A stretch of 32,000 nucleotides of DNA from Ruminococcus albus 7 = DSM 20455. Lineage in GTDB: Bacteria; Bacillota; Clostridia; Oscillospirales; Ruminococcaceae. This document shows, one piece after another, positions 1 through 20,788 of the stretch. How positions within the stretch are numbered: the stretch's first letter is position 1; every line of letters starts with the position of its first letter. The stretch is from contig NC_014833.1 in NCBI RefSeq assembly GCF_000179635.2, positions 3,570,001 through 3,602,000 on the forward strand. The letters are read 5' to 3'. Below the pieces are notes generated by a model. The model made no database searches, had not been told where the DNA came from, and worked only from the letters and a program-made list of their open reading frames with translations. A program made the position numbers and the translations under genes.

Positions 1-521
1 AGATTAGCCTCGAACATTGTGCTGAACTGCTCGGAACCACCGGAATAGCCGCCTGTGTTCATGTTACCGTTGATGATATCCATAACAGGACCCGTAGCGA
101 TTATAACAGGCAGGAAGAATACTGCTCTTGCAAATGTCCTTCCCCTGAACTTCTGGTTGAGTACCAGTGCTATGAATATCGAGAAAATGATTATCAGAGG
201 AGTTCTCAGCGCGGTGTTTTTAAGCATATCTACCAGCGCCAGAGTATACTCCTGATCCTTACGGAAAGCGTTGACGTAGTTTTTCCAGCCGATATACTTC
301 ATATCCATACCGCCGGTAACCGGCTGGGTATCATTGAATGAATAAACCAGCGACATTATCAGGGGTGCTATGAAGAAGTATATCGTACCCAGCGCCCAGA
401 GTCCTATAAAGCCGTAGCCGTAAAGACCCTTCCTCTTTTCATACGAAAGTACGTGTTTTTTCTGATTTGCGGAATTACCGCTCTCGGAAGTCTGAACTGC
501 TTTATTATTCTTTTTGCTCAT
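1..521 (-). CDS. ABC transporter permease, MalF/LplB-like (5' part only; gene continues past the window start)
   Basis: Hand translation of the minus strand from ATG 521-519 gives MSKKNNKAVQTSESGNSANQKKHVLSYEKRKGLYGYGFIGLWALGTIYFFIAPLIMSLVYSFND... and stays open to base 1. A basic N-terminus followed by a TM helix matches the 311-aa permease at 6126-7061. The ATG overlaps the stop of the upstream gene (TAATG). It is not in the ORF track because it has no stop in the window. Confidence 0.7.
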   Translation of the reverse strand, partial: MSKKNNKAVQTSESGNSANQKKHVLSYEKRKGLYGYGFIGLWALGTIYFFIAPLIMSLVYSFNDTQPVTGGMDMKYIGWKNYVNAFRKDQEYTLALVDMLKNTALRTPLIIIFSIFIALVLNQKFRGRTFARAVFFLPVIIATGPVMDIINGNMNTGGYSGGSEQFSTMFEAN

Positions 522-2908
522 TATTTCAAACCTCCTTCGATACATTTTTCAATGCTGACGTTGTTTCCGTCAACAGATGCGGTAGCGTTCTTCTTGTCGA
601 TCTTTACCACAACATCGTTCTGACCATCCTTGGAGTATGTCGTTGTGAGAACATTTCCGTCCTCGCTGATCTCATACTTGCTTATGGTATAATCCTCAAC
701 ACCGCTGATCAGATTCTTTGCTGCCTTGTACTGATTTGCCGCAACATCTGTCCAGCCCCTGTAGTTGGTATAGTACAGGTCATTGTACTCGGTATCCTGA
801 AGCACGTCGCTGTCAGCATAGGTGAAGTCGTAATGGATCTGAGAACCGGAAGCCAGTGCCAGCAGGAATGTTTCATCTGTGTTGGAACTCTTGTTTATAG
901 GACTTGAAGCGTAAGGCACATAGCCGTGGATGACCATCTGATAGAATGGTATATCGTAGTCTGTGATAACGTATCCGCTGGATGATACAGGTATGTTGGA
1001 TACAGTATTCACATACGGCAGTACATAAGCATTAGCCTCATCCGCCATTAGCGAGCCTATCTTACTGCTTGCGTTCTTGTATTCATCTACCAGCAGGTTC
1101 ATAGTCCTGTTTCTGGAATAGGGATCTTTTCTGGGATAATCGCCTACCAGTCTGGAGGACATATAACCAAATCCGGCTTTATCTATACCCTTCTTCTGAT
1201 AGCTCTTTACCATTTCCTCAAAGGTCTTTGAATACTTGCTGGGTGAAAGCAGTGCAGGTGCTACGCCCTTCTTTGCTACACCGAACGACAGGCTGTAGGA
1301 TGACTGTCTTGAATAAGCGTTGGATATTCTTATTGCTGTGCTGGTCAGTGTCCAGTAACCTGCAGATGAACTGTCCATTGTGAAGTTGTTCATCGAAGGA
1401 TATACCTGAACGCCATCGGTGTTGAGGAACTCGGTGAACTTTTTGTTTCCGCCAAGTGTGCCCGAAGGATTTGCCTTAGTGGATATCTTATCCTTTATAG
1501 CTGCATTTGTCCAGTCATTGTAGTTTACCGCGAAGTTGTTTACGCCTTTGCCCTTGAGATCGTCAACTATCTCGCCTGCCTGCTCAAAGCCTGTTATCTC
1601 GGTTTTGAGATTGAAGGGCAGACCCAGTATTGAAGTCCTCTTCAGCACGCCGCCGTAAAGATCCATATACAGCTTATTGGTCATACCCTGCTGCTGCTTC
1701 AGACCCTTCTCGTTGATAAGGTAGTTTCTGTAAACCTCAGCGCAGTCAGCATAGTTTACTTCACCGCCGTCCTTACCTGTTACGGGATAATAGTGTATAC
1801 CGAAGCGCTCGGTCTTGATATCGCCCTTCTCAAATACATTCAGCTTGTTGGCAACGCCGCTCATGAAGAATGCATCGGAGGAACGTGTTTCAAACTCGAA
1901 ATAGCAGCTGTTGTATACCTGCTTGTTCTGACCGCTGACCTGAGCCCTTGCATATACATTGGAATCACCGTCAGTAGCCACTGCAACTATGCCGTTGCTG
2001 CCGCTTACCGTGGATATCACCGGCAGATAAGCCTGCTCGGTAACTCTGGGTGCCTGTAAGGGTACCATGGTATAATCTCTGCCATATACCTGCTGAACGT
2101 AATCGGGATAATTTCCCTTGCCGTTATTGTAATTAATTACAGCACCGCTGCCGTCGGGTATGATCATATAGCCTTCTGTAGGGTTGCCATCATGATCCAC
2201 AGCAGGTGCAGCTGCAAAGTAGGGGCAGAGCTGGAGTTTTGTGAGTATCTTTCCGTCTACGGTAGAAGTGTTCTTCTCCTCTATCTCGGAAGTATTGACA
2301 TAAACGTACAGACTGTCATCACAGAGTTCGTAATGTACCTTCAGCGTAACGCCTTCGGAGTTGTACTTATACTCGATGACCGCACCCTTATCGTTGGTCT
2401 TCCACTTTGTTTTTGCCTTGTTGGAATATACAGGTGAAGCTGACTCAGATCTTTTTTCCTGTCTGAGGTCACCGACCTTGATAGCGCAGCTTGAAGCTAT
2501 CTGCTTTCTCAGACTTGACTTCATCATTACGCCCTTTTCAGGATCGACCACCTGATCCTCGGAGAATACGTTGATAGGAGATGTCCACCAGTAAGTACCG
2601 CTCTCCTTTACGTAAAGACCGAGTCTTTCATTCTTTTCGTCACCGTAGAGAATGAAGTTATCGTTCTCGCTGAGCTTTTCTGCCATATCAGCAGCCTGCT
2701 CATCACTAATCTTTTCGGGAAGCTCGTCCTCGCTGCCCGTAGTTTCCTCATCGCCGGAAGCTGTTTCTTCAGCGCCAACTGCAGCATCTTCGACCGCGGC
2801 AGTATCCTCTTCGGCATCTGCCGAAGTAACAGCCATAGAACCCAGAGGCATCAGCATAGTAAGGCACAATCCAAAGACAATTGCTTTTTTATAACTTTTG
2901 TTATGCAT
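521..2908 (-). CDS. Secreted 795-aa protein of unknown family (signal peptide, acidic linker, large globular region; possibly glycan-active)
   Basis: Long ORF. The N-terminus KKAIVFGLCLTMLMPLGSMAVTSADA looks like a signal peptide and is followed by an E/D/T-rich linker. GGTGGTG RBS lies 5 nt upstream of the ATG. I cannot assign a family by eye. Confidence 0.8.
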   Translation of the reverse strand: MHNKSYKKAIVFGLCLTMLMPLGSMAVTSADAEEDTAAVEDAAVGAEETASGDEETTGSEDELPEKISDEQAADMAEKLSENDNFILYGDEKNERLGLYVKESGTYWWTSPINVFSEDQVVDPEKGVMMKSSLRKQIASSCAIKVGDLRQEKRSESASPVYSNKAKTKWKTNDKGAVIEYKYNSEGVTLKVHYELCDDSLYVYVNTSEIEEKNTSTVDGKILTKLQLCPYFAAAPAVDHDGNPTEGYMIIPDGSGAVINYNNGKGNYPDYVQQVYGRDYTMVPLQAPRVTEQAYLPVISTVSGSNGIVAVATDGDSNVYARAQVSGQNKQVYNSCYFEFETRSSDAFFMSGVANKLNVFEKGDIKTERFGIHYYPVTGKDGGEVNYADCAEVYRNYLINEKGLKQQQGMTNKLYMDLYGGVLKRTSILGLPFNLKTEITGFEQAGEIVDDLKGKGVNNFAVNYNDWTNAAIKDKISTKANPSGTLGGNKKFTEFLNTDGVQVYPSMNNFTMDSSSAGYWTLTSTAIRISNAYSRQSSYSLSFGVAKKGVAPALLSPSKYSKTFEEMVKSYQKKGIDKAGFGYMSSRLVGDYPRKDPYSRNRTMNLLVDEYKNASSKIGSLMADEANAYVLPYVNTVSNIPVSSSGYVITDYDIPFYQMVIHGYVPYASSPINKSSNTDETFLLALASGSQIHYDFTYADSDVLQDTEYNDLYYTNYRGWTDVAANQYKAAKNLISGVEDYTISKYEISEDGNVLTTTYSKDGQNDVVVKIDKKNATASVDGNNVSIEKCIEGGLK

Positions 2909-2930
2909 TTTAACACCACCGTTTCTATAT

Positions 2931-3560
2931 TTAGCCTCGGATCCTATACGCGATCTCTGTATAGATCTGATAGAAGAATACGTAAACCTGCTGGAACAGT
3001 GAGAGCAGAAGTATCGCCAGGAACAGTATCAGCAGCATAGCTATCAGTGTCAGGATCATTGATATGAGCGTTTTGCCGAATGAATACTGATGGCAGGCTC
3101 TCATTGCCTGTATCATAAGAACTAACGACCAGCCATAGCCCAGATAGTAGAGGGCGTTCAGCCAGATCGCTTCCTCCTGTACCAGGAAGTTGGAGAGGAC
3201 CACGCTTATAAGTGTGCAACCGATGAATGGTACCAGAGAATAAGCGGAGTATATGCATATCCTCCTGAATGTGCCCTCGCCTTCCAGCAGTGTGCATATC
3301 GACCAGTTGCCGATGCACCAGGTTATGTAGTATACCACCGACTGAACTATCAGGGGGACTACATTGAATACTTTTACATAGTTACCGTTGAACTGAAAGC
3401 CGGTCAGCTGTCTTGAAGCGACCATTGCCACGAACAGCATGAATACGATGATCATTGAGATCTTCACCGAACCCTGCTTTTTCCATCTCAGATCTTCAAA
3501 ACCCTCAACAGGGTGGAAGATACAATGCTTCAGCCAACCTATAGGTGTAAATTCATACAT
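2931..3560 (-). CDS. Yip1-like polytopic membrane protein (about 5 TM)
   Basis: 209 aa. A short soluble N-terminus (FHPVEGFEDLRWKKQGS) is followed by five hydrophobic helices. GGAGGG RBS. The gene starts 4 nt after the upstream stop. The family call rests on architecture only. Confidence 0.55.
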   Translation of the reverse strand: MYEFTPIGWLKHCIFHPVEGFEDLRWKKQGSVKISMIIVFMLFVAMVASRQLTGFQFNGNYVKVFNVVPLIVQSVVYYITWCIGNWSICTLLEGEGTFRRICIYSAYSLVPFIGCTLISVVLSNFLVQEEAIWLNALYYLGYGWSLVLMIQAMRACHQYSFGKTLISMILTLIAMLLILFLAILLLSLFQQVYVFFYQIYTEIAYRIRG

Positions 3561-3563
3561 AGT

Positions 3564-5159
3564 TTATCTTCCCTCCCTCTTTGACTTCTTTTTGAATCTG
3601 CCTTTGATGACATAGATGTTTTTCTTGTGAAGCTTGGATACTACTATCATCCATACCACCAGCACTGCCAGTATCGTTACCATAGCAGTGAAGTGCTTCT
3701 CGATGAACTCGTTTCTTGCATACTTGAACGCTCTGTCATAGGATCTCTGAGCATAAGCTGTTTCAAAGTAATCCAGAGCCTTCTGGTATTCGCCCTCATT
3801 CAGTGCAGCCTTGCCGAGACCCATGTAAGCCATAGGATAACCGCCGTCTCTTGCGATGACGTTCTCCCATACAGGCTTAGCCTCTGAATATCTGCCCTGA
3901 TCGTAAAGCTCGACAGCCTCATGCATCAGCGTACCGAAGGTAGTTTCCGAATATACGGTAACATCGTTCTTTGAACCGTCAAGCACGTAGATATTTCCGT
4001 TATAAGCCTCCAGCGCATTTGGGTTTGAAAAACTTCCGCGCTGGTCGTTGGTGGAGTTCTTTGTACCGAAGATACAAAGCAGATCAGCATTTCTGTCATA
4101 CTGGAAAACACGTCCGGTGGAGAAATCCAGCACGTTTATCAGACCGTTATCGGATATACATATATCCGTAAGTCTGGTCGAGTATGTCTGGTTCTGTGCA
4201 GCATCGTACTCAGATGCCATATCACCGAATATGTAGGTATCACCTGTGGAGTTGTTCCAGATATTGTAGCCTGCGGGGTTCAGCTTCTTTACTGCGTCCG
4301 TGGTAGCGTTAGCCGCCTCGGTAACGGTATATATGAAACCGCCGTCGTCTATATCGAAGTTTGCATACTCAACAGGTACGTTTCTCTGCATACCCGAGAT
4401 CTGCTCGTTTGATGCGAACTTTCTCCAGAGCTTCTGTGCGATAACGGCAGCCGTTACCTCAACTCGGTTTGCACCGAAGTATCCCTGGAACTTGCCGGTC
4501 TTTGTGAACTGCACCGCACCCTGGTTTACAGAGGTACAAACTGCGTACACGTTCTCTGCCTTATCAGCAACCACCTTTGAGGGGTTGAAAGTCTCAACGG
4601 TATAAAGATCGGTCTCGGGTCTTGTGTATTCCATAACGAGTTCAAGTTCTGTATTGGATTCCACCGAAGCCTTGACCACTCTGGAATTTTCATAGTCTGC
4701 AATGTATATGTAAAGCTTGCCGTCCAGTACGCTGCGCTTTACATAAACACCCGAAGGTGCTGCAAAGTTCTTGCCGTCTGAAGCGCCTGTATAAGCGCCT
4801 ATCAGCTTCAGCTCATCGTCCAGTCTGAGGATACGGTTATTATCGGTATCCGCGATCCAGAACTGTTTGAGTTCAGGTTCAAAGAAAAGATCCTTTGAAT
4901 TTGCAAGTCTTGCGGATGCCTTTTCACCGATGTACAGCGGATCGGAGGGATCCGCAAGTCTGCTGAGTCCCATATCATATCCTGTAACGGTCTTGTCGAT
5001 ACGGTAAGCGTTCTGCGAAGGTATCGGGTCGCCCCAGGCATCGTATATATAGGACTTGTAGGGTTCTCCTGCGTAAGCATTCAGCGTCATCGACATTGCA
5101 GCGACGGCAGCCATTCCTGCGCAGAGAATCTTTTTAAAAGATTTTTTTATTCTCAACAC
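3564..5159 (-). CDS. Exported NHL-like beta-propeller plus TPR protein with a C-terminal membrane anchor
   Basis: GTG start preceded by an AAGGTGA RBS. Signal peptide CAGMAAVAAMSMTLNAYA. Repeated NHL-like blades (FWIADTDNNRILRLD, IYIADYENSRVVK, INVLDFSTGRVFQYD, IYVLDGSKNDVTVY). TPR-like segment (YDQGRYSEAKPVWE...GEYQKALDYFETAY). C-terminal TM helix MVTILAVLVVWMIVV followed by a basic tail. Confidence 0.65.
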   Translation of the reverse strand: MLRIKKSFKKILCAGMAAVAAMSMTLNAYAGEPYKSYIYDAWGDPIPSQNAYRIDKTVTGYDMGLSRLADPSDPLYIGEKASARLANSKDLFFEPELKQFWIADTDNNRILRLDDELKLIGAYTGASDGKNFAAPSGVYVKRSVLDGKLYIYIADYENSRVVKASVESNTELELVMEYTRPETDLYTVETFNPSKVVADKAENVYAVCTSVNQGAVQFTKTGKFQGYFGANRVEVTAAVIAQKLWRKFASNEQISGMQRNVPVEYANFDIDDGGFIYTVTEAANATTDAVKKLNPAGYNIWNNSTGDTYIFGDMASEYDAAQNQTYSTRLTDICISDNGLINVLDFSTGRVFQYDRNADLLCIFGTKNSTNDQRGSFSNPNALEAYNGNIYVLDGSKNDVTVYSETTFGTLMHEAVELYDQGRYSEAKPVWENVIARDGGYPMAYMGLGKAALNEGEYQKALDYFETAYAQRSYDRAFKYARNEFIEKHFTAMVTILAVLVVWMIVVSKLHKKNIYVIKGRFKKKSKREGR

Positions 5160-5204
5160 TACTTATCACCTTTTTCCTTTTCTAGTTCTCATGTCGGATA
5201 CGTA

Positions 5205-6107
5205 TTAATCCTTCATACCGGAATTCGCCATGGTCTCCATAACGTTGCCCTGGGCAACCAGGAATACCAGCAGCGGTGGGATGAGAAGTACAACACTCGA
5301 AGCGAAGGTTACGCCCTGACGTGCAAGACCTGCAGCCGATATCTGCTGTACAACAGTAGGTAGTGTTTTGAGTTCTTCCGAATATATCAGAGCGCCGCCC
5401 TGCATATTCCATGCACCCTGGAATGCGAAGATTATCAGGGTCATCAGTGCGGGCTTGGAGTTGGGAACAACGATCTGCCAGCATATCCTGAACAGACTTG
5501 CGCCGTCCACCTTTGCAGCCTCTACCATAGCGTCATGTATCGTGGACATTGACTGTCTCATCAGGTACAGACCGATAGATGTGGAGATACTTGGGAGTAT
5601 CAGTGCCCAGTAGGTATCTATCATCCTCAGCTTAGCCATTACCATGAACTGCATTATCCATGTAGCGTTTGAAGCGAACAGCAGTGCAAGTACTATCACC
5701 TGGTTGATGAACTTATAACCGGGGAAACGGCACTTTGAAAGCACGAATGCCGCACAGCAGCAAACAAACAGGTTCGCACCGCAGATAACGATGGTTATGA
5801 AGAAGCTGTTGAAGATATATCTGGAAAGCGGCACCTGCCATGAGTTAGCCGCAACTCTGAACATATCCGAGAAGTTCCTTCCCGTGGGATTGATAACGTA
5901 AAGCTTCGGCGGGAACACGAACAGTTCCTCAACAGGCTTTAACGACTGTATCACCGAGTAGTACAGCGGGAATACCATGAATGCACCCAGAAGCACCAAA
6001 AATATGAATATGCAGACATCGCCCGCCCTTGAGCCGTTGATAGGCTTTTTCTTATCAGAGACCTTGAGCTTCTCGATAGACTGCTTCTTTTTCTTTCTTC
6101 CAGCCAT
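5205..6107 (-). CDS. Carbohydrate-type ABC transporter permease (MalG/LplC-like)
   Basis: 300 aa and polytopic. EAA-loop motif EAAKVDGASLFRICWQIVVPNSKPAL. Lys-rich N-terminus. Confidence 0.85.
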   Translation of the reverse strand: MAGRKKKKQSIEKLKVSDKKKPINGSRAGDVCIFIFLVLLGAFMVFPLYYSVIQSLKPVEELFVFPPKLYVINPTGRNFSDMFRVAANSWQVPLSRYIFNSFFITIVICGANLFVCCCAAFVLSKCRFPGYKFINQVIVLALLFASNATWIMQFMVMAKLRMIDTYWALILPSISTSIGLYLMRQSMSTIHDAMVEAAKVDGASLFRICWQIVVPNSKPALMTLIIFAFQGAWNMQGGALIYSEELKTLPTVVQQISAAGLARQGVTFASSVVLLIPPLLVFLVAQGNVMETMANSGMKD

Positions 6108-6125
6108 TTGAAATATTCCCCCCTT

Positions 6126-7061
6126 TTAGTCAAGATACTTGCCGAGTATCCAGTTGACACCCTTGTTGGCAAGAAGCATCGCAGCGAAGAGTACGAAACA
6201 TATCGCTGACGAATAGCCCATCTCATAACGTACCCAGCCGTAGTCTGTAGCGTGGTTCATTATGGTATGTGCAGCGTAGTCGGTGGAAGGCAGACCAACG
6301 AGGTTCTGACCTACCATACCAACTGTGAACGAAGTGGATATCTGCATAACTGCAGCGAACAGCAGCTGGGGTCCCATGGAAGGGATAGTGATCTTGAAAA
6401 GTTCCTGCCATCTGTTCTTGATGCCCTCGATAGCACCTGCCTCGTACATAGACTTGTCTATGTTCTGGAAGCCTGCACGTATCGCAAGGAAGCCTGCGCC
6501 CATGGACATCCACAATTGCACGATGATAACTACCGTGAGTATGTACTTGGTATCAGTTATCCACTGTGCAGGGGATTTGAGTATGCCCAGATCCATCAGC
6601 ACTGCGTTCAGGTAACCGTAGGAGTCACCCGAAAGGATCAGCTGCCAGGTTACATATACCGATGTAGTCATGGAAGGTGCGTAGAATACGAATGTAAAGA
6701 ATGTTTTCAGGAACGGGTTCATCTCGTTTATCAGCCACGCTATAAGGAAGCTGAGAACGTAGGAGAAAGGTCCTGTGAATATCGCGAATATAAGGGTATT
6801 TCTCACCGCGATAAGGAACACAGCGTCATTGACGAACAGTGTGTAGAAATTTGACAGACCCACCCATTTGGGCATCTGTATCATGTTGAAGTTGGTAAAA
6901 CCCATAGGCAGTGACATTAAAACAGGCACCACCGTAAATGTTATGAAGAATATCATGAAAGGAACGAGCATCAGGTAGCAGCCTTTATTGGCTTTAACCA
7001 TGTGCCAGGTATAAGCCCCTCTGCCCTGTTTGTTCATAGGGCCTTCTTTTCTCTTAGCCAT
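6126..7061 (-). CDS. Carbohydrate-type ABC transporter permease (MalF/LplB-like)
   Basis: 311 aa and polytopic. EAA-loop motif YEAGAIEGIKNRWQELFKITIPSMGP. AAGGAGAG RBS. Confidence 0.85.
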   Translation of the reverse strand: MAKRKEGPMNKQGRGAYTWHMVKANKGCYLMLVPFMIFFITFTVVPVLMSLPMGFTNFNMIQMPKWVGLSNFYTLFVNDAVFLIAVRNTLIFAIFTGPFSYVLSFLIAWLINEMNPFLKTFFTFVFYAPSMTTSVYVTWQLILSGDSYGYLNAVLMDLGILKSPAQWITDTKYILTVVIIVQLWMSMGAGFLAIRAGFQNIDKSMYEAGAIEGIKNRWQELFKITIPSMGPQLLFAAVMQISTSFTVGMVGQNLVGLPSTDYAAHTIMNHATDYGWVRYEMGYSSAICFVLFAAMLLANKGVNWILGKYLD

Positions 7062-7081
7062 AACACAACACTCTCCTTTCC

Positions 7082-10021
7082 TTATTCTAATCCGAGGTCT
7101 GCACGCTTACGTGCGATCTCGTCGTTGATATCCTTGTTGTACCAGAACAGGGTATCTCTTGCATTATCATTTTCGTTGACAACTTTTCTGAAAGCGTTCA
7201 TTACGTTTCTTGTAACGCCGTAGGAAGCAGGGATAATGGGTATCTCCACCTGAGTGTTCATCTGATCGAGCAGAAGATCTGCTTCCTTGGTAGTCCATGA
7301 AAGACCTCTCAGTGCTTCCTGGTTAGCAGTGGAATAACGTCCCATAGGTCCGAGTACGGATTCGATGTTGTTGCCGTACTTGGTCTGTGTTTCGGTGCTT
7401 GTGAACCACTTGATGAAATCCCATGCGCCGTCCTTATCGGGAGCCTTGTTGAATATTACACAGCCTGTGCTCTCGGAGTTTGCAGTATGGTTGATATTGC
7501 CGTTTGCGTCCTTTGTACCGGGTACAGCTCTGAAGCTCCAGCAGCCCTTGATCTCGGGAGCCGCAGCTGTCAGCTGATTGTAGAACGAGTAGTCATTTAC
7601 CAGTACAGGCATATCGCCCTGTCTGAATCTTGTGAACGCATCATACTGCTGCTGGAAGCTGTATGTGGTATAGAACTTTGTCCATGTATCGAAGGCTTCG
7701 ATAGCAGGCTGCTGATCGAAAGTCGTCTTCGTCTGATCCTCGTTGTAGTAGTTAAGACCCTGCTGGAGCAGCATCATAGCGAAGGTGCTTCCGTTCTCTG
7801 TAACGGCAGATACCATTGTAACGCCCGCAGTTGCAGTAGCGGGAAGTCTCAGACCTACTTCAAGGTAGTTTCTCTGGAGAGTGGGCAGACAGTTGATTAT
7901 GTTGTCCCATGTAGCCAGATCTGTTTCGGGATCGATATCGTACTGTTCCAGTATATCCGATCTGTAGAACAGCATCGGGAAATTCTGTGTACATGGCAGA
8001 CCGTAAACGCCGCCGTCGTATGTGTACAGTGTCATGATATCAGGAGCGAACCTCTTGGTCACTTCCTCATAGTCGCTGAACTGTGTAAGATCTACCAGTG
8101 TATCTCTTACTGCCAGCTGAATGGGGTAGTCACCGCCCAGGAAGAGTGCCATATCAGGGCCCTTGCCTGAGAATGTAGCCTCAGTGATACCGCCCTGTAC
8201 CAGCTTGAGGTTTATCTTTGTATCGGACTTTGCGTTGTAGTCACTGTCGATAAGTTCCTTGATAACGACCGCATTATCACGGCCGAGTGTTACCCAGCAC
8301 TCCTGTGCATTGGCATCTTCTTCGTTTGAAAGCGAGTTGTAGTCCTCAAAGAATGAACCTATAAAGGACTGGAAACCGTGACCTACTGTTCCTAAGAATG
8401 TCTGCTCACAGTCGGAGAACTCCACATTTTCCGAGCAAAGCTCCAGCTTATCAACTTCAAGGGGCTGCATTCTGTAAGTATTGATAAAGGTCGATACCGC
8501 AGTTACGTTATCCTTGATCTGTCCCATCATCTCGGGGATTATATCAGGCTTCTTCACACATTTGTCAAGTACTATCGCCATTTTTTCAAGCGTTTCGGCT
8601 TCTGTTCCGCCCGAACCCGAAAGCTGCTCGATCTTTTCCTTTTCCTGTCTGAGGAGCTTTGCGTTATACTCGAAATCACCGATGATATCGGGTATAGCCA
8701 CATCTATCATGTAGTTGTTGTACTCATCGGGAGAAGGACCTGTTATCTGTCTTATCTGGCGGTAATAGCTGTTGATATCGAAAACAACATCATCCAGCTC
8801 ACCCATTATCTCACCTATCTCACCGGGAACTGCTTCCAGTGTGAGGGTGTTGGAGCCTGCCTCAAAGAAGAAGTACATAGGATTGCCTGCCTTATTGACA
8901 GGTGAAACGACGTTCCAGTCAGTGTCATAGAAGAACTTGATCTGCTCAGACTCCTTATTGGGAACAACGCCGTTTATGTACAGCCTTCTGTTGGAGTACA
9001 TACCTCTCATCTGGTCCTGTCTGCTGAATATACCTATCTTATAGTAACCTGCCTGTGCTACATTGAATTCCCATGTAACAGCCTGTGTTGACTGGTTCCA
9101 GTTTCCGGCGCCGCCGATAGTATTGTACCTGGTCTTGGTGGGGCTGTATTCCTTGGAACTTGAGGTAGTATAAGATGTCTTGTCAGATGTGGGGTACAGT
9201 GTTCTGGAAGACTTGTAATTTGCAGTTTCACCTTCCAGCACTATACGCTGACCGCTGTTCTTGCTAATTTCGGAAGCCGAGGGAGCGTCATACTCCTTGG
9301 GCTGTTTATAATTGTATACCTTTATATCACCTATAACGAACTGTGCCTTGTCGGATTCGATGGTGATAACGTGCTTTCCTGCATCCATATAGAACTGCAG
9401 AGGCTCGTTGTACAGACCATCTATATCAGCCAGCGGCTTATCCATCTGCCAGGTGGGATATTCTATCTGACCGGGACGCATATCGTTGCCCTTGGCATCC
9501 TCACCGATATCGCCGTCATTTATCCACACCTTGTCAAGAGTTATACGCTGAGCCGTACCATAGGGGCTCTCGCCGTCGATAAGCATCGAGAACTCGATAT
9601 CATTTGTCGTGCCCGGCAGAGCGTAGTACGACATCATAAAGTTGTATCTGCCGTCCTGAGGTATATCCACCTCATAAGAAACAGAACCCTGCTGATTCGA
9701 CCATATAAATACATCGTCAACACCTTCAAAGCTGGTGTCTGCGCCTTTCTCAAGATCGGCACTTACCGAATCAGGCAAATAATCAGAACCCTTTATAACG
9801 ATCTCGTCGATATCGGGTCTTGCTGTATCCTCATATTTTTTCAGATACTTGCTGTACGAATTCTGTCGGATACTATCTGTACCTGTTATAGCTTCCGAGC
9901 TTTCATCGGCACCGCCCGGAGAGTCGTCTGTTTCTGCAAAAGCCGTCGGAACAAAGCAGCTGACACTCAGTGTGAGCGCCAAAGCAGAGCAAACAACACG
10001 CCTAAACATTGTGTTTTTCAC
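7082..10021 (-). CDS. Giant extracellular solute-binding protein: signal peptide, two CBM-like beta-sandwich modules, a linker, and a family-1-type SBP domain
   Basis: Long ORF. The likely start is GTG 10021 (AGGGTGGA RBS 7 nt upstream); an alternative is ATG 10009. Signal peptide FRRVVCSALALTLSVSCFVPTAFA. The C-terminal roughly 430 aa look like an ABC sugar SBP (GPDMALFLGGDYPIQLA..., YGLPCTQNFPMLFYRSDILEQ). The N-terminal half has two modules with the pattern W-x-V-x-V-x-x-x-G-x-Y. Confidence 0.8.
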   Translation of the reverse strand: MKNTMFRRVVCSALALTLSVSCFVPTAFAETDDSPGGADESSEAITGTDSIRQNSYSKYLKKYEDTARPDIDEIVIKGSDYLPDSVSADLEKGADTSFEGVDDVFIWSNQQGSVSYEVDIPQDGRYNFMMSYYALPGTTNDIEFSMLIDGESPYGTAQRITLDKVWINDGDIGEDAKGNDMRPGQIEYPTWQMDKPLADIDGLYNEPLQFYMDAGKHVITIESDKAQFVIGDIKVYNYKQPKEYDAPSASEISKNSGQRIVLEGETANYKSSRTLYPTSDKTSYTTSSSKEYSPTKTRYNTIGGAGNWNQSTQAVTWEFNVAQAGYYKIGIFSRQDQMRGMYSNRRLYINGVVPNKESEQIKFFYDTDWNVVSPVNKAGNPMYFFFEAGSNTLTLEAVPGEIGEIMGELDDVVFDINSYYRQIRQITGPSPDEYNNYMIDVAIPDIIGDFEYNAKLLRQEKEKIEQLSGSGGTEAETLEKMAIVLDKCVKKPDIIPEMMGQIKDNVTAVSTFINTYRMQPLEVDKLELCSENVEFSDCEQTFLGTVGHGFQSFIGSFFEDYNSLSNEEDANAQECWVTLGRDNAVVIKELIDSDYNAKSDTKINLKLVQGGITEATFSGKGPDMALFLGGDYPIQLAVRDTLVDLTQFSDYEEVTKRFAPDIMTLYTYDGGVYGLPCTQNFPMLFYRSDILEQYDIDPETDLATWDNIINCLPTLQRNYLEVGLRLPATATAGVTMVSAVTENGSTFAMMLLQQGLNYYNEDQTKTTFDQQPAIEAFDTWTKFYTTYSFQQQYDAFTRFRQGDMPVLVNDYSFYNQLTAAAPEIKGCWSFRAVPGTKDANGNINHTANSESTGCVIFNKAPDKDGAWDFIKWFTSTETQTKYGNNIESVLGPMGRYSTANQEALRGLSWTTKEADLLLDQMNTQVEIPIIPASYGVTRNVMNAFRKVVNENDNARDTLFWYNKDINDEIARKRADLGLE

Positions 10022-10177
10022 TATTAGATCCACCCTTTCTAAAAATATGCTGTGAAAAAAACCTGAGATCCTCACTGCTTTTCCGGCAGGACATCCGCCC
10101 GCCGTACCGACGCATAGTCTTTAAAACTGTCAAGAGATCCCATCTATCCGGGTCTGTCCTGCAGACCGAATAAACTA

Positions 10178-11110
10178 CTAACTGTCCTCTGCGGGGAAAA
10201 GCATTATGCCGCCCCGTTCTTCGTCAAGCTCCACCCTGACCTTGCCGCCGCCCTTTATCCCCAGCGACTGCATATAGTCCTTCGGAAGCTGTAATCTGCC
10301 TGATCTGTCCAGCACAGCCAGCTCCTCATGTGTAGCTTCATCACCGGTAATTACCTCACCCATTTCGCTGAGGTCCTCCGAGTACGACTTCTTACGGATT
10401 ATCTCCGAGCTCGTCCTGCCGTCCCTTATCGCCACTACCCTGTCGATATGTTCCGCAAGCTTCAGGTCATGGGTGACTATCACCACTGTAACGCCCTCGC
10501 TCCTGTTGAGCTCCTTGAATATATCCAGTATCATCGCAGAGGTCTTTGTATCCACTGAACCCGTAGGCTCATCTGCCAGCAGAAGCTTCGGGTCATTCGC
10601 CATAGCTATTGCTATAGCCACCCTTTGCTGTTCACCGCCCGACATCTGATCGAGCCTGCTGTTTATGCGCTTTTCCAGTCCTACCTTTTTAAGAAGCTCC
10701 AGCGCTCTCGCGCGTCTGCCCTTCTTGCCCTTCAGCAGCATGGGAAGTTCCACATTCTGCACTGCAGTAAGGTAAGGCACCAGGTTCCTCGCATTGTTCT
10801 GCCACACGAAGCCTACGGTATCCCGCTTGTACTCCATGTAGTCCTTGTCTGTAAATTTCAGCAGATCCTTGCCGTTGACTGTAAGACTTCCCGCGGAAGG
10901 TCTGTCAATTCCGCCGAGCATATTCAGCAGCGTTGATTTTCCGCTGCCCGAATTCCCGACGATAGCCATGAGCTCACCTTTCTTCACATCAAGGTCAAGC
11001 CCCTGCAGCGCCACCGCTTCAACATCGGATGTCTTATATATCTTTACAAGGTTCTCGCATCTTATCATGTACTCATCATCAGCTGACTTTTTAATAGTAT
11101 CATCACTCAA
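10178..11110 (-). CDS. ABC transporter ATP-binding protein (LolD/MacB/FtsE-like) with a C-terminal AbrB/SpoVT-like swapped-hairpin domain
   Basis: Walker A GNSGSGKST, signature MSGGEQQRVAIAIA, Walker B LLLADEPTGSVD, H-loop VIVTHD. The last roughly 48 aa (GRLQLPKDYMQSLGIKGGGKVRVELDEERGGIMLFP) fit the AbrB/MazE pattern. The ORF start is a TTG that overlaps the upstream gene by 8 nt; ATG 11068 (MIRCENLVKIYK) is an alternative. Confidence 0.85.
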   Translation of the reverse strand: MSDDTIKKSADDEYMIRCENLVKIYKTSDVEAVALQGLDLDVKKGELMAIVGNSGSGKSTLLNMLGGIDRPSAGSLTVNGKDLLKFTDKDYMEYKRDTVGFVWQNNARNLVPYLTAVQNVELPMLLKGKKGRRARALELLKKVGLEKRINSRLDQMSGGEQQRVAIAIAMANDPKLLLADEPTGSVDTKTSAMILDIFKELNRSEGVTVVIVTHDLKLAEHIDRVVAIRDGRTSSEIIRKKSYSEDLSEMGEVITGDEATHEELAVLDRSGRLQLPKDYMQSLGIKGGGKVRVELDEERGGIMLFPAEDS

Positions 11111-11780
11111 CTATCTCACCGTCCTCCAATGTGTACACCTTATCTGCCACGTCCATCATGCTTGGATCATGGGTGGTCATTATTATAGTCATGTTCTGCT
11201 TGGCAACAAGCTCCTTGAAAAGCTTGACGATGTGCAGAGCGGTATTGGTATCCAGCTCCGCAGTAGGCTCATCAGCGAATATCAGCCGCGGTTCATGGGC
11301 TATAGCCCTTGCTATCGCTACTCTCTGCTGTTCGCCGCCCGACATCTCACTGGGTCTGTGACCCATCCTCTTTTCAAGACCGACCGCCGCAAGACATTCC
11401 TTTGTACGCGCGTCACGCTTAAAGTACGGGTACTTCGCAAGCCTCAGCCCGAAGCTTACATTTTCATAAGCCGTCATCCCCGACATAAGCGCCACCGACT
11501 GAAATACAAATGCCATATCGTACCTTCGCAGGTCATCCCTGGCACCCTCGGACAGCTTTGTGATATCCTTTCCGTCAAACATCACCCTGCCACCCGTAGG
11601 TCGGTCAAGCGCCCCGAGAATATTTATCAGCGTTGTTTTGCCGCTTCCGGAACGTCCCCTGAGTATGGTCAGTTTGCCTTTTTCTATCTCGATATTCACA
11701 TTCTTCAAAGCAGAAACTATACTGCCGTCGCCAATTTTGAAGTCGCGGTAAAGCTCCTCCGTCTTCAGTATAACGTCCAT
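11103..11780 (-). CDS. ABC transporter ATP-binding protein (LolD/MacB/FtsE-like)
   Basis: Walker A GRSGSGKTT, signature MSGGEQQRVAIARA, Walker B LIFADEPTAELD, H-loop IMTTHD. I prefer the ATG at 11780 (MDVILKTEEL, GGAGGGAG upstream). The ORF-track start at 11837 has no RBS. Confidence 0.85.
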   Translation of the reverse strand: MDVILKTEELYRDFKIGDGSIVSALKNVNIEIEKGKLTILRGRSGSGKTTLINILGALDRPTGGRVMFDGKDITKLSEGARDDLRRYDMAFVFQSVALMSGMTAYENVSFGLRLAKYPYFKRDARTKECLAAVGLEKRMGHRPSEMSGGEQQRVAIARAIAHEPRLIFADEPTAELDTNTALHIVKLFKELVAKQNMTIIMTTHDPSMMDVADKVYTLEDGEIVE

Positions 11781-11983
11781 GGGGCTCACTCCCTCCGCGT
11801 TAATCTGCCTGATTTTTTCATCATCAGATTTGTGCATTTTTCACATCTTGTTACATCTTGTTTTTCGTGAATACAACATACAGTGTTCACTGTACAACTT
11901 GTTCAAAAATATTAGCTAAACGGAGTGCAGTATGCTACATCTTTTATCTAAATTATCCAAAATAGCATACTTTGCTATCATTC

Positions 11984-12012
11984 ATTATAACAATTAACCG
12001 ACAATTTGTCAA
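11984..12012 (-). promoter_or_regulatory. Consensus sigma-A-type promoter for the ABC/surface-protein operon
   Basis: The minus strand reads TTGACA, then 17 nt (aattgtcggttaattgt), then TATAAT. It lies about 200 nt upstream of the first ATPase start. Confidence 0.6.
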
Positions 12013-12322
12013 GCGCTAGAAAACGTTTACGCTGGCTTAAATTTTCGCTATAAATTCGCTTTCGCTGTACTGCACAACCAAATTCCTCAAAAATTGTGCA
12101 TTCTGCAACATTCTCGCGCAATTTTTGACTTGGGTTATCGTTTTCACTTGTTCAATTCATAATTATTTTTCAGTTATCTTTGTGTAAAATCACAACAGAA
12201 TTTAAAACGCTGATATGCACAAAATAATTGCGTTAATTTAGTTAAAATTTCATATATTTTCATATAAAAAAAACGAGCCGCCATAATAGCAGTGTCCGTA
12301 AAGATCATTTATGATAACTACC

Positions 12323-12382
12323 GGAGGAAACCTTTCTGAATAAAGGTTTCCCTCAATAATTTTCACAAACGTTCTATATGAG
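12323..12382. repeat. Hairpin plus conserved tail repeat, copy A (copy B at 30359-30418)
   Basis: ggaaaccttt/ctgaat/aaaggtttcc followed by ctcaataattttcacaaacgttctatatgag. It closely matches 30359-30418, with compensatory changes in the stem. Confidence 0.7.
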
Positions 12383-12427
12383 CACAGCTATTACAAGCGG
12401 CTTGTTTTTGATATACGAAACTATGTA

Positions 12428-13678
12428 TCAGAACTTTTTCTTGCCTTTGACGTATGCTGACAGCAAAGATATATCCGATACATTTACCCTGCCGTCACCG
12501 TTAAGGTCTGCTTTATTTGAAGTACCCAGGGTCTTTTTACCCTTTATGTGTGCAGCTACCTTGGAAATATCTGACACATTGACCGAGCCGTCGCCGTTGA
12601 TATCGCCTTTGCTTTTGCTTGCAGTGGATATCACTTCATAAGCCAGACCGTTTTCCTTTGCATACTGTTCAGCAGCGCTGCCCTTATACACCCTCATTTT
12701 GAAGCCCTTTATCTTGCCGTTATCGTAAAAGCCCAGTGCATCGGGGCTGATCTTTGTAACACTTTTCGGGATAGTTACAGTACCCATAGCGGTGCAGCCG
12801 TAAAAAGCATCATACCATATAGTAGTCAGACTGCTTGGCAGCTGTACATTTCTGAGGCTTATGCATCCGTTGAAAGCGTCAATGCTTATCTCTTTGAGCT
12901 TTGACGGGAACTTTACGCTTGCAAGACCAACACAATCAATGAAAGTATTGGCTTCTATCGAAGTGATATTATCAGGCAGGGATATGCTTTTCAGACGTGA
13001 GCAAAGATAGAAAGCGTTGGCGCCAATAAAAGTAAGTGTACTTGGCAGTGATATGCTTTCAAGGCCCTTGCACTTTCCGAATGCATGTATGCCCAGCTTT
13101 GTAACGCCGCTTGGTACGGTCACATTTCTCAGCGCTCCGCACTCCTCAAACGCATAATCAGGTATCGCCTTCAGACCACTGCTTATGGTCAGCGAGCTCA
13201 GGGATTCACAGCCGCAGAAAGCACTGCTCTCCAGCTTGGTCACAGTGTTGGGCATAGCCACCGAGCGCAGGGATATACAGTTCATGAAAGCCTCTTCCTT
13301 TATCTCCTTCAGACCACTCGGCAGATTTATGCTCTGCAGATTTGCACAATAGAAGAATGCGCATATACCTATACTCTTGATAGTGCTCGGCAGAGTTACG
13401 CTTTTTACGGAATGATTGTTGTCAAACGCGTATTTGCCTATGCTGACTACCGTCTTGCCGTTTATTGAGGAAGGCACCGAAACATTTGCTGCACTGCCGT
13501 TATAACCTGTTATCTCAACTGTATTATCTCCGAATACGATATAATTGAATGAACCGTATACCGAATCTGCACTTGCATTGACCACAGTATCCGTACCTAT
13601 GGGTACCACAGGAACAACTGCACCGCCGAACACCATCATCAGCGCACAAAGACCCGTCGCAACTCTTTTCATTTTCAT
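12428..13678 (-). CDS. Secreted BspA-type leucine-rich-repeat protein with a C-terminal dockerin
   Basis: Start set at MKMKRVATGLCALMMVFGG (signal peptide, GGAAAGAGAG RBS). About 23-aa repeats of the form SV.LPS.LK.IG..AF..C..L. The C-terminus GDINGDGSVNVSDISKVAAHIKG...DLNGDGRVNVSDISLLSAYVKG is two Ca-binding dockerin segments. Confidence 0.85.
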   Translation of the reverse strand: MKMKRVATGLCALMMVFGGAVVPVVPIGTDTVVNASADSVYGSFNYIVFGDNTVEITGYNGSAANVSVPSSINGKTVVSIGKYAFDNNHSVKSVTLPSTIKSIGICAFFYCANLQSINLPSGLKEIKEEAFMNCISLRSVAMPNTVTKLESSAFCGCESLSSLTISSGLKAIPDYAFEECGALRNVTVPSGVTKLGIHAFGKCKGLESISLPSTLTFIGANAFYLCSRLKSISLPDNITSIEANTFIDCVGLASVKFPSKLKEISIDAFNGCISLRNVQLPSSLTTIWYDAFYGCTAMGTVTIPKSVTKISPDALGFYDNGKIKGFKMRVYKGSAAEQYAKENGLAYEVISTASKSKGDINGDGSVNVSDISKVAAHIKGKKTLGTSNKADLNGDGRVNVSDISLLSAYVKGKKKF

Positions 13679-13753
13679 AAAACCACTCTCTTTCCTTTTA
13701 TACTCTATACGCACCTGCTTTTTGCAGATGATTAATATGTAATAATATTTAAC

Positions 13754-13782
13754 ATTATACATCATTTTCCGGTAAATGTCTA
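13754..13782 (-). promoter_or_regulatory. Putative promoter of the LRR-dockerin gene
   Basis: The minus strand reads TAGACA, then 17 nt, then TATAAT. It lies inside the 5' extension of the ORF-track model, which supports the shorter start at 13678. Confidence 0.5.
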
Positions 13783-13926
13783 GTCATATTATGCTAAATA
13801 GTTCTTAACTGATATCTATAATTGCGCAGCAGAACATTATATCTCACAAAATGAGCAGTATCACGGCACCCGTCCACTGTGCGTTTTCATCCCGCTGCAC
13901 AGCATTTATTAACTTTTTGTCCCCCC

Positions 13927-13955
13927 TTGCAAAATCGCTGAAACCGTGATATAAT
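13927..13955 (+). promoter_or_regulatory. Putative promoter of the pdxK-trmL-array-degV transcription unit
   Basis: TTGCAA, then 17 nt, then TATAAT, with a TGa extended -10 element. It lies 38 nt upstream of the pdxK ATG. Confidence 0.6.
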
Positions 13956-13992
13956 TATTTGAATAATATTATTATAAAGAGGGATCAGTAAA

Positions 13993-14853
13993 ATGAATGG
14001 CTGCAAAAGAGTTGCCGCAATACAGGATCTGTCAGGTCTTGGAAGATGTTCGCTGACAGTTATAATACCCACGCTTTCCGCAATGGGTGTGCAGGTTTGT
14101 CCTGTGCCGACAGCGGTGCTTTCCGCACACACGGGTTACAGTGAATTCGTTATCCGCGATCTCACGGATTTCATTCACCCCGCCCTGGAACACTACAAAC
14201 GCATGAATACGCATTTTGACTGCATATACAGCGGTTTTCTGGCTTCTGCCGAACAGATAGATCACTGTCTGGAATTCTTCTCCGCTTACCCAGATGCACT
14301 TAAAGTCGTCGATCCCGTCATGGGCGATGACGGCAAAAGCTACGCCACCTACACAGGCGAACTTTGCAAGCGAATGGGCGAGCTTGTGGAAGTAGCTGAC
14401 ATAATCACCCCCAACATCACCGAAGCGGCTATACTTCTCGGTGAGGAATACCCCTCCATGCCCCTTGGCAGCAGCGATGCAAAATCGTGGCTGGTAAGGC
14501 TCTCGGGGCAGGGTGCGCGCACTGTGGTGATCACCAGCGTGAATCTTGCAGGCGGCGGTATGCACACTATCGGCTACGACAGGGAGACCAACAGTTTCTG
14601 GAAGATACGCAACGATTACGTCAGCGGTGCGCACTATTCGGGCACAGGTGATATATTCGCAAGCGTACTCATAGGCTCGCTCCTTAAAGGCGACAGCCTG
14701 CCGATCGCCATGAACAGGGCTACGGCATTTGCCGAGCTGAATGTCAAGGTGACATACAGCTACCAGCAGCCCTGGACAGAGGGTCTTATGCTTGAAAGCC
14801 AGCTGCCCTGGCTCACAAGCTATCAGCAGCTTGACGGGTATTCTGTGCTATGA
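13993..14853 (+). CDS. pdxK: Pyridoxal/pyridoxamine kinase (ribokinase-like superfamily)
   Basis: N-terminus KRVAAIQDLSGLGRCSLTVIIPTLSAMGVQVCPVPTAVLSAHTGY and C-terminal GTGDIFASVLIG anion-hole motif, both typical of the PdxK/PdxY family. AGAGGGA RBS. Confidence 0.8.
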   Translation: MNGCKRVAAIQDLSGLGRCSLTVIIPTLSAMGVQVCPVPTAVLSAHTGYSEFVIRDLTDFIHPALEHYKRMNTHFDCIYSGFLASAEQIDHCLEFFSAYPDALKVVDPVMGDDGKSYATYTGELCKRMGELVEVADIITPNITEAAILLGEEYPSMPLGSSDAKSWLVRLSGQGARTVVITSVNLAGGGMHTIGYDRETNSFWKIRNDYVSGAHYSGTGDIFASVLIGSLLKGDSLPIAMNRATAFAELNVKVTYSYQQPWTEGLMLESQLPWLTSYQQLDGYSVL

Positions 14854-18868: not shown

Positions 18869-19870
18869 ATGAAAAGAAAATATGAATTCAAAGGCAGGGG
18901 CAGATGGACGACCGTAGTATCGGTCATATTGTTTATACCATTAATGGTCTGGTTCGTGCTGGCTGCCGTATATGACAGCGTTGCTGCAATGGGTCTGTGG
19001 CTGCTGACGCTCATATGTTTCATCGCCATAGATCTGACTATCCCCTGTTATTACGATGCGGGAGATACTTCGGTAACTTTCAGCATACTCGGCAAAAAGA
19101 CCCGTATCGACTACTGCGACATACAGTCTGTGGAAATCAGTTACAGCGAGAACAGAACATCTGTAGATAAGACGATAACCTTTGTGTTCCCTTTTGAAAA
19201 GCTTGTTATACAGACCTATACAAAACGGTATGTATTCTGTGCAAAGCTGAGAGACTTCAGCGGCAGGGGCTGTATGGCTGAACTCAAAGACTATATCGAC
19301 GAGCGGATAGGCTTGAAAGAGTACATATCGTCTATTTGCCCGGAAGATGTACAGATAAGCAATGGTATAAAAGGAAAATTCAGGCACACATCTTTGGCGA
19401 TATATTTGTTTACACTGCCGATGTTAGGATCATTGTTCCTTGCAGAGTACGCAGTTATCGCTGAGATACCATACAGCGAATTCGGCTTATATCTGGGTAT
19501 TTTCCTGCTGAGCTGTATTGGTCTGCTGCTTTCGCTATATGCGCCGTTCCGCTTTGAGGCTGATGAAAGCAGTGTGGTTTTCAAAGAGCTTATCCCGCCC
19601 CGAAAGCGAAGGATATACTACTCCGATATAAAAAGCATTGAGCTTACAAGAGAGTATATCAACTCACGGGGCGAATCACGGATAGAGGAAACTATCATTT
19701 TTCATCTGTCAGGCGGTTCGGTAAGATACACGCAGGATAATATAGGTATAGACCTGCGGAAATGCAGTGATCAACTCAGCGAGATAAGGGATGAATTAAA
19801 CAACAGTTTATTTTCGCATTTAAAGCGATACATAGAAAGTAAAATGGAATACCCCAAGGAGGTAAATTAA
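18869..19870 (+). CDS. Array modules 6a plus 6b: divergent double-module paralog
   Basis: MKRKYEFKG..., two TM helices, YDAGDTSVTFSILGKKTRIDYCDIQSVEI and LKDYIDERIG. A second pair of TM helices follows, then FEADESSVVFKEL...RIYYSDIKSIEL, IIFHLSGG and FSHLKRYIESKM. Confidence 0.75.
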   Translation: MKRKYEFKGRGRWTTVVSVILFIPLMVWFVLAAVYDSVAAMGLWLLTLICFIAIDLTIPCYYDAGDTSVTFSILGKKTRIDYCDIQSVEISYSENRTSVDKTITFVFPFEKLVIQTYTKRYVFCAKLRDFSGRGCMAELKDYIDERIGLKEYISSICPEDVQISNGIKGKFRHTSLAIYLFTLPMLGSLFLAEYAVIAEIPYSEFGLYLGIFLLSCIGLLLSLYAPFRFEADESSVVFKELIPPRKRRIYYSDIKSIELTREYINSRGESRIEETIIFHLSGGSVRYTQDNIGIDLRKCSDQLSEIRDELNNSLFSHLKRYIESKMEYPKEVN

Positions 19871-19871
19871 A

Positions 19872-20744: not shown

Positions 20745-20758
20745 TATCATAATACTTC

Positions 20759-20788
20759 GGAGCTGTTTTACTGACAGCTCCTTTTTTA
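20759..20788 (+). terminator. Rho-independent terminator after the DegV-family gene
   Basis: ggagctgt / tttactg / acagctcc followed by tttttt. Confidence 0.75.

Follow-up and report, generated by a model that had tools for sequence, protein, structure and literature searches.

Several described systems resemble, each in some of its parts, a gene cluster of Ruminococcus albus 7 (= DSM 20455) that lies on the minus strand of a 32,000-nt stretch of contig NC_014833.1 (positions 3,570,001 to 3,602,000), called the window below, to which all coordinates given without a contig or locus name refer. On the one hand there are the CUT1 importers, such as MalEFGK2 of Escherichia coli and the MsmX/MsmK-sharing systems of Firmicutes; on the other there are MacB, LolCDE, FtsEX and the Gram-positive MacAB-like pumps, for instance Spr0693-0695 of Streptococcus pneumoniae, all of them ATP-binding cassette (ABC) systems. 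YknWXYZ of Bacillus is a four-component MacB-type system consisting of the Yip1-family protein YknW, a membrane fusion protein (MFP) named YknX, the ATPase YknY and the FtsX-type permease YknZ (PMC4887032, PMC5985334). A last point of comparison is the glycoside hydrolase (GH) family GH129, with NagBb, an alpha-N-acetylgalactosaminidase of Bifidobacterium bifidum, and ZgGH129, a 3,6-anhydro-D-galactosidase. The R. albus locus is uncharacterised though widely conserved, and the reading that we regard as probable is that it forms one operon joining two ABC systems, in which the two ATPases A1 and A2 power a distant FtsX-MFP pair and are co-transcribed with a glycan module. These unusual ATPases probably belong to a split MacB-type system and do not drive the importer itself. 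The features of the cluster that lie in the window are the following, from high to low coordinates:

11984 to 12012, minus strand: promoter-like site upstream of A1, with TTGACA, a 17-nt spacer, TATAAT and an extended TG (12/12 consensus positions; a consensus match only)
11103 to 11837, minus strand: A1, a 244-aa MacB/LolD-type ABC ATPase (ABC_tran, E = 5e-33)
10178 to 11110, minus strand: A2, a 310-aa MacB/LolD-type ABC ATPase (ABC_tran) with an AbrB/SpoVT-like tail at residues ~265-307
10010 to 10177, minus strand: intergenic gap between A2 and the substrate-binding protein (SBP) gene, 168 nt when the SBP is read from Met23 and 102 nt from its GTG start
7082 to 10075, minus strand: SBP, 997 aa from GTG; probable start Met23 (coordinate 10009), giving ~975 aa, with a signal peptide after Met23
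6126 to 7061, minus strand: P1, a 311-aa MalF-like type-I permease (BPD_transp_1; EAA loop YEAGAIEGIKN...; best NCBIfam model UgpA, weak)
5205 to 6107, minus strand: P2, a 300-aa MalG-like type-I permease (BPD_transp_1; EAA loop VEAAKVDGAS...)
3564 to 5159, minus strand: NHL/TPR protein, 531 aa, extracytoplasmic, made up of an NHL beta-propeller and TPR repeats, secreted by a signal peptide and anchored by a transmembrane segment at its C-terminus
2931 to 3560, minus strand: Yip1 protein, a 209-aa polytopic membrane protein (Yip1, E = 5e-15) with four or five hydrophobic segments
521 to 2908, minus strand: DUF5696 protein, 795 aa, secreted or N-terminally anchored (PF18952, E = 5e-161)
1 to 521, minus strand: 5' part of a second MalF-like permease, P3 (complete length 320 aa), which overlaps at its start with the stop of DUF5696 (TAATG) and continues beyond the window

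The nine open reading frames (ORFs) of the minus strand between 1 and 11837 reproduce, in their coordinates and Pfam matches, those listed in an original prediction made from the letters of the window, which had described a tightly packed unit with this gene order; the 8-nt overlap of A1 and A2 and the TAATG junction of DUF5696 and P3 were likewise recovered, and the remaining gaps measure 3-45 nt, the A2-SBP gap aside. The extension below coordinate 1 that had been proposed was made on contig JHYT01000004.1 of GCA_000621285.1, which encodes an identical 795-aa protein, and it completes the second permease set: next after P3 (320 aa) comes the gene of the MalG-like P4 (348 aa), and a convergent PGA_cap gene beyond it marks the end of the unit, so that the unit comprises ten genes, from A1 to P4. 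The promoter-like site comes after the terminator-like hairpin of the upstream leucine-rich-repeat/dockerin gene (12278-12292), and the ten genes would be transcribed from it as one operon. The same prediction had considered that the 102-bp gap at 10076-10177 might hold a terminator or promoter separating the ATPases from the rest. However, a terminator scan found no terminator-like site in the A2-SBP gap, its RNA fold is not significant (z-score -1.25) and no Rfam family, riboswitches included, was matched across window positions 1-14000; a terminator, promoter or riboswitch in this gap was rejected on these grounds. When compared by tblastn alignment, the A2-SBP gap ranges from 30 to 591 nt with a median of 104 nt (67 loci, 62 different GTDB species).

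Judged by their sequences, A1 and A2 are MacB/LolD-type and not MalK-type ATPases. Walker A, Walker B, signature and H-loop are intact in A1, both proteins retain all catalytic motifs, and both have the ADEPT Walker-B context. Their top NCBIfam models are LolD, DevA, FtsE and MacB, with MalK- and UgpC-type models absent among these top matches; all equivalog cut-offs are missed, including that of the LolD equivalog TIGR02211 (307.75 bits), against which the scores are 209.4 bits for A1 and 231.5 bits for A2. R. albus, a Gram-positive organism, is not known to have a Lol pathway. The best PDB matches are LolD, MJ0796, Spr0694 (5xu1), YtrE and MacB, identity to the Paenibacillus UgpC is 30-31% for A1 and A2, and a TOBE domain is found in neither. 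These best matches, together with the low identity to UgpC, show that the LolD/MacB-type classification given in the original prediction is correct. Thus far the R. albus proteins are like the MacAB-like pumps, MacB, LolCDE and FtsEX, which they also resemble in the putative partners described below, a permease with MacB_PCD and FtsX domains and an MFP; unlike in those systems, the R. albus ATPase genes lie apart from the permease and MFP genes, inside a sugar-importer operon, and encode an apparently heterodimeric pair (fused in other phyla) of which A2 has an AbrB-like tail.

This tail reaches 22.7 bits against the MazE/AbrB-type family PF04014 (cut-off 24.7), a precomputed PF04014 match exists for many A2 orthologues at 75-95% identity, and the motif G-R-L-Q-L-P ... 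V is retained in the Paenibacillus, gut-Firmicute and Chloroflexi relatives of A2. In a search of 1.84 billion representative proteins, ATPases with the A2 tail proved widespread, and many of the top matches are fusions of ~550 aa, whose N-terminal half is A2-like, tail included, and whose C-terminal half is nearer A1 than A2. Such fusions argue for an A1/A2 heterodimer. The alternative of two independent homodimeric ATPases, one for each permease pair, an idea prompted by the presence of the AbrB-like half-barrel in A2 only, was rejected, since A2(tail)-A1 fusions do occur and since the operon partner of the pair is one double-FtsX permease. Other A2-like ATPases with the tail are fused to membrane domains: P0267 (737 aa) to an N-terminal polytopic domain that by eye is Acyl_transf_3-like, and P0277 (858 aa) to a C-terminal polytopic domain of ~500 aa. 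A separate, Pfam-annotated Acyl_transf_3 gene follows the fused ATPase in locus L089, and together these cases hint at a link to surface-glycan modification.

The partners of the A1/A2 family are seen most directly outside Ruminococcus, where an FtsX partner is present in all seven loci with enough flank, three further loci being short, uninformative contigs. For instance, Paenibacillus cellulosilyticus (NZ_CP054609.1, 244038-251165; L097) has an operon A1-MFP-FtsX971-A2-SBP520, in which identity to R. albus is 45% for A1 and 60% for A2 over its full length, tail included; this operon shares its replicon with a UgpC-DUF5696 core. A common gut Firmicute carries the order MFP-MFP-x-FtsX940-A1like-A2like, with 59% identity to R. 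albus for both A1 and A2, and another contig carries FtsX-A1like-A2like. MFP adaptors hence accompany FtsX and the A1/A2 orthologues in Paenibacillus and in the gut Firmicute. Both an Ardenticatenaceae metagenome-assembled genome (MAG) of the Chloroflexi and L089 (GCA_963790575.1) combine two FtsX genes (921-1111 aa) with a fused A2-A1 ATPase, and in L090 (3842-11695) the genes of an SBP and two BPD permeases, which have no ATPase of their own, stand directly before FtsX947 and a fused ATPase. A neighbourhood of MacB-type A1/A2-FtsX systems and sugar-type SBP genes therefore recurs, in L090 as in Paenibacillus, where SBP520 follows A2. Two short contigs of A2 relatives (P0247, P0253) show the A1/A2 pair followed by unrelated genes, the upstream side falling outside the contig.

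Within Ruminococcus, loci were collected by a DUF5696 profile scan of one genome per GTDB species, which gave 201 relatives; the best 80 loci, all from Ruminococcus or Oscillospiraceae, were analysed. Four Hominimerdicola-clade GTDB species carry, 260 nt after P4, the genes of an HlyD-type MFP (350 aa) and of an FtsX protein with MacB_PCD (991 aa); no terminator-like site was found in the P4-MFP interval, and no ATPase gene belongs to the pair itself. The original prediction had stated that no FtsX/MacB-like permease is present. This is true of the window, which contains neither FtsX nor MFP (and neither turned up within ~10 kb of the other 76 GTDB loci), but untrue of the genome, since R. albus records hold an orphan MFP-FtsX pair. 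Scanning metagenomes with an FtsX alignment gave many copies of the Hominimerdicola arrangement and 27 diverged FtsX orthologues (41-76% identity), every one of which belongs to an MFP-FtsX pair without an A1/A2 orthologue in its flanks (13 with a 10-kb flank on both sides). Directly before every Ruminococcus FtsX orthologue lies the gene of a 350-355-aa HlyD/BSH-type MFP, and among the members of the 90%-identity FtsX clusters are entries labelled R. albus 7 (ADU23620.1) and R. albus SY3, besides further R. albus records.

The position of this pair could be read in GCA_024689805.1, an assembly in which the cluster proteins share 98-100% identity with those of the window. Its contig JAILDB010000098.1 carries MFP355-FtsX985 at 19076-23121 and the ten-gene unit at 45777-59115 on the same strand, so that MFP-FtsX stands downstream of P4 at a distance of 22.7 kb, flanked by homoserine dehydrogenase and GH95 genes and with no ATPase. 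In another MAG the cluster and MFP-FtsX (L037, L139) are ~50 kb apart on one 92,428-bp contig. In three lineages, then, the unit has MFP-FtsX downstream in the same orientation, 0.26, 22.7 or ~50 kb away, which suggests an ancestral block A1-A2-[core]-MFP-FtsX that was later split by insertions. The R. albus FtsX985 has two FtsX matches and is probably a fused double permease. In GCA_024689805.1, a GH95 gene and a GH26 gene with a carbohydrate-binding module (CBM) of family CBM35 follow MFP-FtsX on the same strand (L178, 13490-17818).

The resemblance to YknWXYZ is one of gene content: Ruminococcus genomes hold all four component types, namely Yip1, an HlyD-type MFP, MacB/LolD-type ATPases and FtsX, and the Yip1 gene is in the same operon as the ATPase genes. 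In contrast with YknWXYZ, Ruminococcus has two different ATPases, one of them AbrB-tailed, its components are split between loci, its FtsX measures ~985 aa with two FtsX matches, its Yip1 belongs to the glycan core and is found also without MacB-type genes nearby, and no peptide-resistance context is evident.

The remainder of the unit, from the SBP to P4, is closest to the CUT1 importers. As in these, the SBP has an SBP_bac_1/8 domain, formed by C-terminal residues 605-901 (SBP_bac_8, E = 6.5e-24; SBP_bac_1, E = 7e-20), and the permeases are MalF-like and MalG-like, with EAA loops and MalG-type C-terminal tails; moreover, the Paenibacillus version of the cluster includes a UgpC/MalK-type ATPase with OB_MalK and TOBE_2. 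The R. albus unit departs from CUT1 importers in its single SBP of ~980 aa, in which two N-terminal CBM35-like beta-sandwich regions and a helical linker precede the SBP_bac_1/8 domain. A lipobox, as expected of the lipoprotein SBPs of Gram-positive CUT1 importers, is absent from the giant SBPs of R. albus, Butyrivibrio and Paenibacillus, and present in two accessory Butyrivibrio SBPs. Further departures are the two permease pairs per unit, the additional NHL/TPR, Yip1 and DUF5696 proteins, the weak BPD_transp_1 matches of the R. albus permeases (36-38 bits) and the fact that in Ruminococcus only MacB-type ATPases are encoded in cis. BPD_transp_1 is matched by P1, P2 and P4; P3 has no Pfam match but aligns with annotated sugar permeases, and the best NCBIfam models for the permeases are UgpA and UgpE. 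The EAA loops (EAA-x3-G) found in all four indicate two complete membrane-domain pairs. These loops are alike in Ruminococcus, Butyrivibrio and Paenibacillus, whatever ATPase is nearby, with no Ruminococcus-specific change. Orthologues are recognisable over the full length of the SBP (35% identity in Butyrivibrio, 29% in Paenibacillus) and in P1 (48% and 44%, respectively). The NHL/TPR and Yip1 orthologues of Paenibacillus form one fused polypeptide of 719 aa, which argues that the two proteins work as one membrane-anchored unit.

Conservation of the unit was assessed by tblastn with the ten proteins, 70 loci being long enough to judge. The order A1-A2-S-P1-P2-N-Y-D-P3-P4 (S, N, Y and D standing for the SBP, NHL/TPR, Yip1 and DUF5696 genes) is kept in 64 of these 70 species, down to 46% DUF5696 identity, with 71-94% identity among the ATPases and 63-99% among the permeases. 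The genes that flank the unit in R. albus recur in at most five of the 80 species loci (6-8 when the same-strain copies L001-L005 are counted). Since the order of A1/A2 and core is kept while the flanks turn over, the linkage appears to be selected rather than inertial. The six exceptions (L023, L038, L039, L041, L068, L078) have the eight genes from the SBP to P4 and no ABC ATPase anywhere in the 20-kb locus; they comprise a Ruminococcus subclade and one further species. Upstream of their SBP lies the sigF operon or thrS, the former as spoIIAA-spoIIAB-sigF on the other strand in L023 and the latter in L078.

When annotated plasmids were searched by tblastn for DUF5696, two records only were found, one from Butyrivibrio and one from Paenibacillus, and both hold the whole SBP-to-P4 block in the same order, with every gene a reciprocal best match of its R. 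albus counterpart. Compared with R. albus, the core on pNP243 of Butyrivibrio fibrisolvens (NZ_CP146964.1) lacks an ATPase gene, GH43 and two-component system genes lying upstream and two lipoprotein SBPs downstream, and that on the P. cellulosilyticus megaplasmid (NZ_CP054609.1) has a UgpC-type ATPase (OB_MalK + TOBE_2) upstream in cis, besides the NHL-Yip1 fusion; A1/A2 adjoin the core in neither. A literature search found no characterisation of these Butyrivibrio or Paenibacillus DUF5696 clusters. By synteny and orthology, the eight-gene core is an ancient Bacillota module that does not need A1/A2 in cis. The locus is thus as atypical as the original prediction had held, its ten-gene order being conserved in a way that its flanks are not, and the three non-transporter proteins which had been counted to the unit do belong to it, being part of the eight-gene core in Butyrivibrio and Paenibacillus as well.

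The DUF5696 protein has a signal peptide without a lipobox. Its Pfam scan gave DUF5696 alone, without even a weak GH match at E <= 10, and a sequence profile search of the PDB gave no meaningful match and no GH structure. A structure was predicted with AlphaFold2 from 63 orthologues (predicted local distance difference test, pLDDT, 76; predicted template modelling score, pTM, 0.82), replacing a 12-sequence model of pLDDT 55, and consists of a (beta/alpha)8 barrel between N- and C-terminal beta-sandwiches, which is the three-domain fold of GH129. Foldseek against the PDB placed GH129 chains in all 11 best positions (E = 1.6e-25 to 2.9e-20; target-normalised template modelling score 0.61-0.69), with ZgGH129 ranking first (E = 1.6e-25), NagBb reaching E ~ 1e-22, and GH31, GH36 and GH97 coming next; the earlier, poor model had given the same ranking. 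Five acidic residues of the barrel, D416, D590, D650, D652 and D694, are invariant. DUF5696 differs from GH129 members in that its identity to them is ~12%, that neither sequence comparison nor Pfam ties it to any GH family, and that it is always encoded between the Yip1 gene and a permease pair. On the basis of the model, DUF5696 is probably a distant GH129-like protein and an alpha-glycosidase. Literature searches found no mention of DUF5696 and nothing relevant on the combination of Yip1, NHL and ABC proteins.

Taken in this way, the core would capture and import a complex glycan by means of the CBM-bearing SBP, two MalF/MalG-like pairs, the NHL/TPR-Yip1 unit and the GH129-like surface protein, and the energy for its permeases would most likely come from an ATPase of the MalK/MsmX type, whose gene lies in cis in Paenibacillus and which Butyrivibrio and Ruminococcus would presumably supply in trans. 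A1 and A2, for their part, would pair up as the nucleotide-binding heterodimer of a MacB-type (type VII) machine with the ~985-aa FtsX and the MFP. With the ATPase genes transcribed together with the glycan module, this machine would be active only when the module is expressed, so that the two systems probably serve one surface-glycan process. Several points weigh against this picture. The evidence for the FtsX-MFP pair comes from a near-identical strain and further R. albus records rather than from the window's own assembly; no MalK/MsmK/UgpC-type ATPase lies within the 32-kb window or 10 kb beyond; and the docking of A1/A2 on FtsX in Ruminococcus is deduced from gene contexts. In addition, in ~90% of the species the ATPase genes stand beside the importer rather than beside FtsX-MFP, as would be expected of importer energisers, the glycosidase assignment of DUF5696 depends on fold similarity at ~12% identity, and co-transcription is read from a consensus promoter, short gaps and the absence of a terminator.

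The alternative that survives best, though we consider it rather unlikely, is that A1/A2 energise both type-I permease pairs, much as the original prediction had supposed when it saw A1/A2 as importer energisers. They would have replaced a MalK-type ATPase or work alongside it, and might serve FtsX-MFP too, in which case two ABC architectures would have one ATPase pair in common. The two genes do head the operon behind a 12/12 promoter, with no terminator before the SBP; they adjoin the core in 64 of 70 species despite flank turnover; the cluster and its surroundings (the window and 10 kb) hold no MalK-type ATPase; two different ATPases would suit heterodimeric MalF/MalG-type domains; and the catalytic motifs of both are complete. 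What speaks against such a role is that the A1/A2-family loci outside Ruminococcus have an FtsX partner in seven of seven informative cases, where the orthologues are operonic with FtsX, that Ruminococcus, R. albus included, retains an orphan FtsX-MFP without another ATPase gene nearby, and that the orthologous core in Paenibacillus uses UgpC. Likewise, the core is found without a cis ATPase in Butyrivibrio and six Ruminococcus species, and the EAA loops lack any Ruminococcus-specific change. To our knowledge, no MacB-type ATPase drives a type-I importer, which also counts against this alternative.

A physical link of the core to the MacB-type machine through Yip1, by analogy with YknWXYZ, is conceivable, and so is the larger envelope machine that the original prediction had suggested. 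That all twelve proteins make up one composite envelope machine, a type VII mechanotransducer coupled through Yip1 and the NHL/TPR protein to the core, is an unlikely extension of this link. If it were true, hydrolysis of ATP by a single heterodimeric pair would power or gate the way in which a plant glycan is captured, trimmed and taken up, and in the extreme version the same A1/A2 pair would dock on both FtsX-type and MalF/MalG-type membrane domains. Finally, it is very unlikely that A1/A2 were simply left beside the glycan operon when an ancestral A1-A2 ... MFP-FtsX block broke up, an inertia with no functional meaning: insertions into one block would fit the downstream, same-strand MFP-FtsX at 0.26, 22.7 and ~50 kb, as would the six species with a core lacking A1/A2 and the unrelated genes after the pair in the two short contigs, but in 64 of 70 species A1/A2 and the SBP still lie together, on one strand and a short gap apart, with the flanks replaced outside the closest strains, and related systems also stand beside sugar-type SBP/permease genes in Paenibacillus and L090.

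Other genes of the window deserve a brief description. Directly upstream of the operon, a gene on the minus strand (12428-13765) encodes a BspA-type leucine-rich-repeat protein with a C-terminal dockerin, and a 315-aa protein with an N-terminal dockerin is encoded at 29266-30213 on the plus strand. A gene for enzyme I of the phosphotransferase system (PEP-utilising enzyme, 564 aa) lies at 20850-22544 on the minus strand, ~9 kb from the ABC operon. Between 15493 and 19870, six consecutive ORFs on the plus strand (203, 172, 354, 157, 171 and 333 aa) have a best Pfam E-value of ~4e-5 and reach no gathering score, some of them with faint bacterial-PH or EbsA-like matches; the G+C content of this region, 0.38-0.44, is below that of its surroundings.

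Members of Ruminococcus are key fibre degraders of the rumen and of the human gut, and the cluster, conserved across the genus, comprises DUF5696, NHL/TPR-Yip1, a giant CBM-SBP and doubled permeases, all without a known role. In the transcriptome of R. albus 7, Rumal_3184-3187, an ABC operon of two permeases and an SBP, and the CapA gene Rumal_3179 were up more than 4-fold on cellulose in comparison with cellobiose (PMC4300822, the one paper found with Rumal_318x tags). This operon may be the one in the window, given the PGA_cap/CapA gene as downstream neighbour; the tag count from CapA is off by one against the gene order of the unit. The outcome of the analysis is a defined eight-gene candidate module for complex-glycan uptake and a candidate new glycosidase family with a GH129-like predicted fold. 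It also presents a probable and unusual case of a MacB-type system with its ATPase genes away from the permease gene and inside an importer operon, a caution that an ATPase encoded in an operon is not necessarily the motor of the transporter encoded there. Such a split MacB-type system makes cross-talk between two ABC architectures directly testable.

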